Below the pieces are notes generated by a model, which did not search any database, had not been told where the DNA came from, and saw nothing but the letters and a program-made list of their open reading frames with translations. From UHGV virus genome UHGV-0148165: 64,000 nucleotides of DNA, one strand, 5' to 3'. The position numbers were made by a program, and so were the translations under genes. Origin of the DNA: a virus. Each line of letters starts with the position of its first letter. Within the stretch, counting starts at the first letter, position 1. This document shows, one piece after another, positions 313 through 2,197 of this stretch.

Positions 313-1341
313 ATGTCATCAATACCTTGGATTGATAATGAGTTTGCATACCGTGCATTAGCTCATTTACCTAAATTCACACAAGTAAATAATAGTTCAA
401 CTTTTAAATTGCGGTTTAGATGCCCTGTTTGTGGAGATTCAAAAACCGACCAGAATAAAGCTCGTGGATGGTATTATGGTGATAATAATGAAGGAAATAT
501 TCATTGTTATAACTGTAACTATCATGCACCAATAGGAATATATTTAAAGGAGTTTGAACCTGATTTATATCGTGAGTATATCTTTGAAATAAGAAAAGAA
601 AAAGGTAAAAGTCGTCCAGTAGAAAAACCTAAAGAACTTCCTAAACATCCTGAGAAGAAAATAATTAAATCTCTTCCGTCATGTGTTAGATTAGATAAAC
701 TGGCGGAAGACCATCCAATTATAAAATATGTAAAAGCTCGTTGTATTCCAAAGGATAAATGGAAATATCTTTGGTTTACAACCGAATGGCCTAAATTAGT
801 TAATAGCATAGCACCGGGAACATACAAAAAGGAAATTTCTGAGCCTCGTCTTGTTATTCCAATTTATAATGCTAATGGAAAAGCTGAGTCTTTTCAAGGA
901 CGTGCATTAAAGAAAGATGCTCCTCAAAAATATATCACCATTAAAGCTTATCCTGAGGCAACAAAAATATATGGAGTCGAACGAGTTAAAGATGGCGATG
1001 TATATGTTCTAGAAGGACCTATAGATTCACTTTTTATTGAAAATGGTATAGCTATTACGGGTGGTCAATTAGACCTAGAAATTGTTCCATTTAAAGATAG
1101 ACGCGTGTGGGTTTTAGATAATGAACCTCGTCACCCTGACACTATCAAGCGAATGACTAAATTAGTTGATGCAGGAGAAAGGGTTATGTTTTGGGATAAA
1201 TCTCCCTGGAAATCAAAAGATGTTAATGATATGATTAGAAAGGAAGGTGCAACCACTGAACAAATTATGGAATATATGAAAAATAATATTGCCCAGGGGT
1301 TGATGGCTAAAATGCGGTTATCTAAATATTCCAAGATTTAA
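313..1341 (+). CDS. 61: DNA primase (gp61)
   Basis: 342 aa; N-terminal Cys4 zinc ribbon (CPVCGDS...HCYNCN), TOPRIM-like EGPIDSLF; sits upstream of dam and 56 as in T-even phages. Confidence 0.9.
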   Translation: MSSIPWIDNEFAYRALAHLPKFTQVNNSSTFKLRFRCPVCGDSKTDQNKARGWYYGDNNEGNIHCYNCNYHAPIGIYLKEFEPDLYREYIFEIRKEKGKSRPVEKPKELPKHPEKKIIKSLPSCVRLDKLAEDHPIIKYVKARCIPKDKWKYLWFTTEWPKLVNSIAPGTYKKEISEPRLVIPIYNANGKAESFQGRALKKDAPQKYITIKAYPEATKIYGVERVKDGDVYVLEGPIDSLFIENGIAITGGQLDLEIVPFKDRRVWVLDNEPRHPDTIKRMTKLVDAGERVMFWDKSPWKSKDVNDMIRKEGATTEQIMEYMKNNIAQGLMAKMRLSKYSKI

Positions 1342-1538
1342 ATTAACCCAACTAAAGCAAATGCTAGATCTACGAATGTATCAAGAGTAACTACTGGAAT
1401 ATTAACACCATGCGCAATTGCAATTGGTGATAAAATAAAGTTCCAGAGTAAAATTCCTACCATAGCAGAAATAGTAAAAGCTATACGTTTCTTATTACCT
1501 TTGATGGCATTAACAAGTGCCATTAATTTTTGTGCCAT
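1338..1538 (-). CDS. hypothetical small membrane protein (66 aa), convergent with gene 61
   Basis: Only ORF filling the 61-to-next-gene gap; AAGGAGG 4 nt before ATG on the - strand; hydrophobic segments; no + strand ORF in this interval. Confidence 0.4.
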   Translation of the reverse strand: MAQKLMALVNAIKGNKKRIAFTISAMVGILLWNFILSPIAIAHGVNIPVVTLDTFVDLAFALVGLI

Positions 1539-1581
1539 ATGTCCTCCTTTAAATTAATATTATCACAAATTTCATAAATTT

Positions 1582-1611
1582 GTTTACTTTCTCAGCTTGT
1601 TATGGTATTAT
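1582..1611 (+). promoter_or_regulatory. T4-type early promoter
   Basis: GTTTAC then 18 bp then TATTAT; upstream of ORF 1637. Confidence 0.5.
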
Positions 1612-1636
1612 AAAATAAATTGCTGAGGATGATATA

Positions 1637-2197
1637 ATGATTAATAAAATTGTGCATGAAATGGCTTTAAACGGAGATTCATATAAAATATCTGCCGTAG
1701 TTGAAAATTTCATACTTAATAAAGTAAAAGAATATTTCACTGATTGTTCAGTTAGTTATCAAGAAAAAATGGTTTTAACCGATGATACTGAAAAATCAAA
1801 TAATTTGTTTTGTTCTAATTTTATAACTAAGAAGCGTACTAGAAGATTTGATATTGTTATTTCTCGCAACGGTAAAAAGCATATAATTGAAATTAAACAC
1901 CAAGTTGGTGGAGGTACAGCTATTGATTCGGTTGGAATATATTTAGAAGATAAAGAGAAATTAAAAGAATACACAAAAACTGAAAACCCTGTGTCATTGA
2001 TGATATTAGATTTTTTGCCATGCGGATATTATCCACGTAATAAATGGACAAAAAGAGAATCATTTACTGATAATCCAACTATCCAAGCAAGGTTTAATGA
2101 ATATGCTAAATCACAAAACGTGTTAGTATTACTATCAAATACATATGATGAAGAATTGTATAATTCATTTTTTGCTGCAATAAATGAGAGAATATAA
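1637..2197 (+). CDS. hypothetical protein, candidate PD-(D/E)XK-fold nuclease (186 aa)
   Basis: Motif [21 protein letters not shown] (D, 12 residues, E-I-K) flanked by hydrophobic strands; stop TAA overlaps dam ATG by 1 nt. Confidence 0.5.

Follow-up and report, generated by a model that had tools for sequence, protein, structure and literature searches.

A predicted nuclease gene overlapping dam in T4-like phages: a candidate restriction-modification-like module and a possible origin of the solitary Dam of T4

The locus between gene 61 and dam

The UHGV virus genome UHGV-0148165, analysed here as a stretch of 64,000 nucleotides (the window, to whose full length all coordinates refer unless another record is named), carries between the DNA primase gene 61 and the DNA methyltransferase gene dam an open reading frame (ORF) of 186 amino acids (aa), which we name X. 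X is a predicted nuclease that accompanies Dam in T4-like phages, and we propose that the two genes may form a restriction-modification (R-M)-like module, of which the Dam of T4 would be a surviving half. The phage is T2-like and belongs to the T4 family: at this region, identity reaches 99.3-99.4% with numerous genomes of Tequatrovirus (T4-like phages), among them Yersinia phage fPS-65, phage 107, ACG-C40-like phages and JB75. The genes that define the locus are the following:

313..1341, + strand: gene 61 (DNA primase, 342 aa), which bounds the locus on the left; 98% identical to T4 gp61, with a primase annotation in relatives
1637..2197, + strand: X, predicted PD-(D/E)XK-fold protein of 186 aa; phrog_8706, function unassigned
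2197..2976, + strand: dam, D12-class N6-adenine DNA methyltransferase; Pfam PF02086 at E 5e-51, 97.7% identical to T4 Dam (tblastn)

The stop codon TAA of X shares one base with the ATG of dam (TAATG), and from this overlap dam is predicted to be translationally coupled to X. A first-pass annotation, made from the sequence alone, had described the gap between 61 and dam, two ORFs within it (X and a 66-aa ORF on the opposite strand), the FDIVIS...IIEIK arrangement in X, the stop/start overlap and a strong Shine-Dalgarno sequence, and all of these were borne out by the ORF listing and the sequence. Its account of T4 did not hold in the same way. It had called the interval compact and had placed 61.1, 61.2, sp, 61.4 and dmd of T4 in a larger interval between 61 and dam; in fact the interval measures 309 bp in T4 and 855 nt in the window, so that the window locus is expanded relative to T4, and the five genes sit upstream of 61, the gene order in T4 (NC_000866) and phage 107 being 41-dmd-61.4-sp-61.2-61.1-61-[small ORF]-(X)-dam-56. 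The suggested absence of sp and dmd falls for the same reason, because both lie upstream of 61, beyond the left end of the window. The annotation had also raised the possibility that X is simply 61.2; X is not a 61.2 homologue, since neither X nor the 66-aa ORF showed a relationship by BLASTP to any of the five T4 proteins 61.1, 61.2, Sp, 61.4 and Dmd, the best alignment being only at E 0.45.

Fold, active site and conservation of X

The motif FDIVIS of X contains D72 (codon 1850-1852) and is followed, 12 residues on, by IIEIK with E85 (1889-1891) and K87 (1895-1897). Together with E23 these are the predicted catalytic residues, and a HQ..GTAIDS motif comes directly after them. In nine aligned sequences, going down to 29-35% identity, E23, D72, E85, K87, H88, Q89 and G93-T-A-I-D-S98 are all invariant. 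An AlphaFold2 model computed with seven homologues (predicted local distance difference test score, pLDDT, 80.7; predicted template-modelling score, pTM, 0.80) has the alpha/beta core of restriction-endonuclease-like proteins, with D72 on strand 67-77 and E85-x-K87 on strand 80-88, which form a predicted hairpin, and with E23 in helix 1, the first long helix. When this model was compared by Foldseek with the PDB and with viral models (BFVD), the matches were mostly PD-(D/E)XK nucleases, at modest template-modelling scores (TM-scores) of 0.3-0.48.

The protein is conserved from 99% to about 31% identity, and non-synonymous divergence (pN 0.26-0.51) is lower than synonymous divergence (pS 0.67-0.90), the latter being saturated. 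To judge from their conservation, neither X nor the small ORF on the opposite strand is a chance ORF. The first-pass annotation had proposed a PD-(D/E)XK protein from the motif, and this proposal is upheld for fold, motif and selection, the structure prediction having given a nuclease fold. The model thus supports X as a PD-(D/E)XK restriction-endonuclease fold with an intact D...ExK triad, that is, as a predicted nuclease, which would carry out metal-dependent phosphodiester cleavage.

One polymorphism affects the end of the gene:

2168..2173, + strand: run of six T (T6) near the 3' end of X; five T (T5) in T2, phage 107 and the T4 remnant

The T5 variant is a frameshift that gives an X of 181 aa ending 13 nt before dam, without overlap, and the distant homologues keep the C-terminus of the T6 form, FFxAIKERL.

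Distribution of X and its linkage to dam

A word-indexed search of 5.8 billion proteins for X homologues gave 10 matches. An exhaustive search of 1.84 billion representatives with a hidden Markov model (HMM) gave 11, nine of which (E<=1e-10) are X homologues or fragments, while the remaining two, at E 3.5e-07 and 8.2e-05, are long multi-stretch proteins. A scan of GTDB genomes found no bacterial or archaeal copy, tblastn against plasmids returned nothing at E<=10, and a search of NCBIfam yielded no meaningful match. In IMG/VR only the same phage was matched, and a scan of metagenomes added only Jiaodavirus-like and identical copies. In database records X is labelled hypothetical or is misnamed. 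In AP018813.1 (T2), OQ944321.1 (GADU22), PV295200.1 and others, for example, X is named "head outer capsid protein" and Dam "FokI modification methylase", names that look like annotation-transfer errors.

The linkage of X with dam was surveyed in the phage collections examined and in those matches of the exhaustive profile search whose genomic context could be read. Every X with a readable context lies directly 5' of a D12 methyltransferase gene. This holds in eight divergent lineages. The loci are those of the window, T2, L004, L005-L008, L009, L010, KPV15/L014, L017 and L018, where L017 and L018 are the most distant, and the distance from the X stop to the dam ATG ranges from -35 to 0 nt, so that the two genes always overlap or abut. 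Three contexts were found: (i) primase-X-dam-gene 56, in Tequatrovirus and relatives; (ii) between rIIB and a topoisomerase gene, in Klebsiella Jiaodavirus KPV15; (iii) directly upstream of a rIIA-like gene, in L018. An adjacent and conserved pair of predicted endonuclease and methyltransferase genes, as is expected of a type II R-M system, is therefore present in eight lineages and three contexts.

The two proteins also diverge together. Over 28 pairs, the identity of X rises and falls with that of Dam (Pearson 0.73), X being the faster-evolving of the two, and X co-diverges with the primase as well. Full-length X is present in 155 records of the phage collections, six of them from Klebsiella phages, and each of the 149 Tequatrovirus records in which X is full-length also has dam, contiguous with X and at high identity. 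No locus was found that has X without Dam. The first-pass annotation had coupled X to Dam in a single sequence; the coupling proves stronger than could be seen there, because the pair is kept across lineages and in different neighbourhoods.

Loss of X and the solitary Dam of T4

T4 carries dam at this locus without an intact X, and its alignment with the window delimits one segment:

1562..2117, + strand: segment bounded by two ATCACAAA repeats (1562-1569 and 2110-2117), deleted in T4 (T4 alignment)

T4 lacks the 548 bp between the ATCACAAA copies, and what is left of X, its last ~80 nt, stands immediately before dam. When X and dam were used together as a megablast query, T4-type records aligned from query position 474, which is window position 2110, and this confirms a deletion that leaves a remnant of X. 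The T4-type junction sequence occurs in 33 records, and these deletions account for the gap between the 182 records with a Dam at least 90% identical and the 149 Tequatrovirus records with both genes. On this comparison T4 is a deletion derivative that has lost X and its presumed promoter region and has kept dam. Since the 548-bp deletion leaves the 3' end of X in place, the Dam of T4 appears as a secondarily orphaned methylase.

Dam without X was also found in Slopekvirus (KP27) and in a Biquartavirus, and frameshifted or partial copies of X stand beside dam in G4500, ERS-1 and KarlGJung. Both genes are lacking in many Tequatroviruses (RB14, VEc20) and in Mosigvirus, where the order is 61, small ORF, 56. 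Solitary methylases thus exist in the collections examined and solitary endonucleases do not. Judged from these records, X-dam is a two-gene accessory module of which the predicted nuclease half has been repeatedly lost, and the methylase half has never been lost alone. This one-sided loss, in which Dam outlives X and X never outlives Dam, is what one would expect of a restriction-modification pair.

In the Biquartavirus (L029, Aeromonas phage asfd_1h, 916-3286) a denV-like (endonuclease V) ORF stands between the primase gene and dam, so the primase-dam junction carries different DNA-enzyme genes in different T4-like genera.

Specificity and comparison with known systems

T2 and T4 Dam methylate GATC. 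The best-scoring Pfam family for X is DpnII (PF04556), which consists of GATC enzymes: four of the nine members of the X family match the same region, near the catalytic core, and five give no match. The X of the window scores 16.8 bits and the best member, P0009, 22.5 bits (E 8e-5). A PADLOC model for type II restriction endonucleases also gives a match, at E 9e-5. Matches to BanI, PDDEXK_11 and SfsA are weaker still and sub-threshold. From the Dam partner and the sub-threshold DpnII matches, the target of X would most likely be GATC or a sequence related to the Dam site.

Recognition of GATC has arisen more than once in the PD-(D/E)XK fold, namely in MboI, in Sau3AI/MutH and in the chlorovirus enzyme CviAI; the MboI family was assigned to this fold by mutagenesis, and R.CviAI, which is GATC-specific, is predicted to be an independent PD-(D/E)XK lineage (PMC2441816). 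X has a partner methylase of the same D12/Dam family as DpnII and MboI, whose known partners are DpnM and M.MboIA, whereas it is ~100 residues shorter than these enzymes and occurs only in T4-like phages. The order of the genes is also different: X precedes dam and overlaps it (R then M), unlike the M (M) R order of DpnII, MboI and LlaDCHI.

R.CviAI/M.CviAI of chlorovirus PBCV-1 is a parallel in organization, being likewise a GATC adenine methylase and a PD-(D/E)XK endonuclease in a lytic virus; no homology with X-dam could be detected. The DNA of the chlorovirus host is unmethylated at R.CviAI sites and is the target of the enzyme. As enterobacterial hosts are Dam+, the target of X must differ from the chlorovirus case. 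Among type IIP enzymes of the EcoRI/MunI structural class, MunI (PDB 1d02) is only 13% identical to X, and X has Dam (GATC) as partner, not an AATT-type enzyme. No sequence-level relationship to EcoRI was found by hhalign (probability 0.4%) or BLASTP. A likeness noted by eye between EIKHQ..GTAIDS of X and EAKHQG..GNAIERS of EcoRI is unproven and has no support from either program.

The orphan Dams of phages (T4, Slopekvirus, Biquartavirus) offer a further comparison, the solitary Dam of T4 occupying the same genome position as the Dam of the window. The closest plasmid relatives of the phage Dam, at 38-43% identity (L020-L024), are found on plasmids of Lactococcus, Staphylococcus, Weissella and Enterococcus, and are methylase domains of AlwI-type and FokI-type R-M systems (GGATC-like sites). 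The genes beside these plasmid homologues are AlwI-type, FokI-type or unassigned, and none is DpnII.

Candidate expression signals

Several putative signals for transcription and translation surround X:

1501..1532, + strand: terminator-like hairpin and T-run after gene 61; 11-bp stem, TTTTTG tail, free energy (dG) -12.4 kcal/mol, z -2.9 against shuffled sequences
1583..1611, + strand: candidate early-type promoter for X-dam, sigma-70-like; GTTTAC-like -35 and TGgTATTAT extended -10
1559..1586, - strand: candidate sigma-70-like promoter facing the small ORF, TAAACA-16-GATAAT with TG; weak, from a consensus scan
1625..1629, + strand: Shine-Dalgarno sequence of X, GAGGA, 7 nt before the ATG; the record of phage 107 has a ribosome-binding site there

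The promoter and terminator calls are predictions at the level of consensus. The hairpin is likely the terminator of gene 61, and the record of fPS-65 annotates a terminator in its region. It falls inside codons 5-13 of the 66-aa ORF on the - strand, so that a putative terminator on one strand is coding sequence on the other. For the candidate X-dam promoter, the record of JB75 contains an independent promoter prediction at the equivalent place upstream of X; the site lies within the segment deleted in T4. Sites like the candidate on the - strand are no more frequent in the region than in shuffled sequence, and its -35 part is deleted in T4.

The small membrane-protein gene and the neighbouring genes

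Two further genes lie near X and dam:

1338..1538, - strand: gene for a 66-aa small membrane protein, convergent with gene 61; phrog_2024, RB32ORF030w / RB69ORF029w family
146..310: 61.1; the window starts with the last 14 codons of 61.2

The 3' end of the 66-aa ORF overlaps the stop of gene 61, and its ATG is preceded at 5-6 nt by AAGGAGG, a strong Shine-Dalgarno sequence kept in all alleles. The product has a basic N-terminus followed by hydrophobic segments (maximum Kyte-Doolittle hydropathy over 19 residues, KD19, 2.0) and a conserved WN..P....G...P.V motif. It matches phrog_2024 at E 1.6e-31 and is found in 693 phage records including T4, and RB14 annotates it as RB32ORF030w / "similar to RB69ORF029w". 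Purifying selection is evident between the window and Mosigvirus (pN 0.33, pS 0.74) and between L004 and L007 (pN 0.16, pS 0.90). Homology, an intact ORF, selection and the position convergent with the primase all place it in phrog_2024. The possibility of a chance ORF is ruled out by the 693 records and the purifying selection. T4 has an intact 66-aa homologue, 95% identical (L003, NC_000866; 3239-3439, + strand of that record), which RefSeq NC_000866.4 leaves without annotation.

In phages that lack X and dam the small ORF keeps its place convergent with the primase gene, and for this reason it is not part of the X-dam module. The first-pass annotation, which had included a convergent membrane ORF in a 61-dam cassette, was thus right that the gene is real and conserved and wrong about its membership, the gene being attached to the 3' end of the primase gene. 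In the divergent L004 (3983-4020 region) its ATG is preceded at 33 nt by TATAAATA, which matches the late-promoter box of T4 exactly, and T4, RB14 and Mosigvirus have 7/8 matches to TATAAATA at a similar distance. The gene is possibly transcribed late; this would explain its opposite orientation, a point that we offer as a lead only.

On the other side of dam, gp56 (dCTPase; window 3037-3555 and downstream) shares only ~70% identity with its T4 counterpart, against ~98% for the flanking Dam and primase, and no segF follows it in the window. Divergence of gp56 without segF corresponds to the known T2/T4 polymorphism at the SegF homing site. A scan of window positions 1..5000 against Rfam found no RNA family.

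A possible restriction-modification module and its alternatives

The reading that we favour, and to which we give about an even chance, is that X-dam is a phage-borne type II R-M-like module in which X is active, is held in check by Dam on the phage DNA and cuts DNA that is not methylated by Dam, and in which the Dam of T4 is secondarily orphaned. It builds on the computed fold and catalytic triad, on purifying selection, on the invariant adjacency and overlap of the genes, on the different contexts in which they are found and on the T4 deletion. From these we infer nuclease activity, recognition site, methylation sensitivity, targets and transcript structure.

According to this proposal, the promoter-like site just 5' of X would drive X and dam as one early transcript, and ribosomes that end X would re-initiate on dam through the TAATG overlap. 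X would be a small Mg2+-dependent PD-(D/E)XK endonuclease, probably a homodimer like MunI, and would cut at or near the Dam site (GATC) when this is unmethylated, while methylation by Dam would shield the DNA of the phage itself. Likely targets would be molecules in the infected cell that Dam has not methylated, for example the DNA of co-infecting T-even phages without Dam, or foreign DNA of another kind. The pairing would make the cassette self-preserving, as it does bacterial R-M systems. The nuclease gene would be dispensable and repeatedly lost, giving an orphan Dam as in T4.

A number of observations weigh against this proposal. The restriction of X to T4-like phages, with no copy in bacterial genomes, is unusual for an R-M system. 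Among the exhaustive HMM matches in the 1.84 billion representatives there is no characterised family, a profile built from the X alignment and run against all PDB sequences gave nothing at E<=10, and a search of the literature found no description of X. The structural model is uncertain at residues 51-63 and 91-94. All the DpnII scores of the X family are below the Pfam gathering cut-off of PF04556 (23 bits), and only about 90 positions (~143-235) of its 278-position profile align with X, which has 186 aa where that architecture has ~280; membership of the DpnII family is therefore not established. The PADLOC match is likewise below its curated threshold. Gene-order conservation is common in T4-like phages, so that the adjacency of X and dam may in part reflect inheritance and not function, although the three contexts argue against mere inheritance. 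Moreover, T-even DNA carries glucosylated hydroxymethylcytosine (glucosyl-hmC) and E. coli DNA is already Dam-methylated, which leaves few obvious targets and perhaps no need of Dam for self-protection. A version that we regard as unlikely is that X tolerates hmC or glucosyl-hmC and serves with Dam as a GATC weapon against co-infecting dam-less T-even phages (RB14-type Tequatroviruses and Mosigviruses).

As an alternative, X might be a modification-dependent or cytosine-DNA-specific nuclease whose substrate is ordinary cytosine DNA, cut at GATC either when Dam has methylated the site or whatever its adenine methylation; the glucosyl-hmC DNA of the phage would be immune, and the role of Dam would be to single out host or foreign DNA for destruction and not to protect the phage. 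We find this decidedly unlikely: marking by a phage Dam would be superfluous in E. coli, whose DNA carries Dam methylation anyway, T-even phages have cytosine-specific host-DNA nucleases of their own in denA and denB, the best family-level matches of X are to DpnII, which is blocked by methylation, and the loss of X with Dam retained, never the reverse, fits a methylase that protects against a restriction enzyme. The linkage data bear in turn on a selfish endonuclease of the homing type, like seg and mob, which would cut X-less 61/56 junctions and spread X-dam by gene conversion, Dam being a passenger or the protector of a single target site. X does share with the T-even homing endonucleases (Seg, Mob, Hef) the condition of a small nuclease gene variably present between conserved early genes. 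It differs from them in fold and in being always paired and co-diverging with a methylase in several contexts; searches of Pfam, PHROG and NCBIfam found no GIY-YIG or HNH domain in it. Its phylogeny is not decoupled from that of its neighbours, since X co-diverges with Dam and primase, and three unrelated insertion contexts are unexpected for a site-specific homing enzyme. With no extra DNA-binding domain either, and with 186 aa, the minimal type IIP size, X has only a slim chance of being such an element.

The tight coupling to Dam would also suit a MutH-like nuclease for methyl-directed nicking or for repair and recombination, in which hemimethylated GATC would guide strand choice during phage replication or recombination; MutH is itself a PD-(D/E)XK enzyme that works with Dam at GATC. 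Neither MutH nor Sau3AI is among the top structural or sequence matches of X, no MutS or MutL partner is encoded nearby, T4 can do without X, and most T4-like genera that have Dam lack X, so that this role appears highly improbable. Finally, as the activity of X is a prediction from the model, and as the T5 frameshift form in T2 persists with a truncated C-terminal helix, X could be a non-catalytic DNA-binding or regulatory protein which, for example, controls the expression of dam or the specificity of Dam. The invariance of the acidic/lysine triad and of E23 in nine sequences at ~30% identity is unexpected for a scaffold, and we consider this the least probable of the explanations discussed here.

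Significance

R-M systems, PD-(D/E)XK restriction enzymes and virus-borne R-M are already known; what sets this case apart is its setting, a virulent phage whose DNA is hypermodified, and its bearing on where the Dam of T4 came from. The Dams of T4 and T2 have been model methyltransferases for fifty years. Our data suggest that Dam came in as the protecting member of a two-gene nuclease-methylase module and is usually retained in that role, T4 then looking like a deletion derivative of the module. A conserved small membrane-protein gene, absent from the RefSeq annotation of T4, was also identified at the locus.

If X is active, it would represent a new and very small family of type II restriction enzymes confined to T4-like phages, and X-dam would count among the rare R-M systems that are complete and belong to a strictly virulent bacteriophage. 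In mixed infections it could then also help to decide whether one phage excludes a related one, with relevance to the design of phage cocktails, as about 150 sequenced Tequatroviruses, therapeutic candidates included, carry X. Should the hmC-tolerant version be true, R-M would be at work in virus-versus-virus competition on hypermodified DNA, and the orphan Dam of T4 would be the surviving half of that system.

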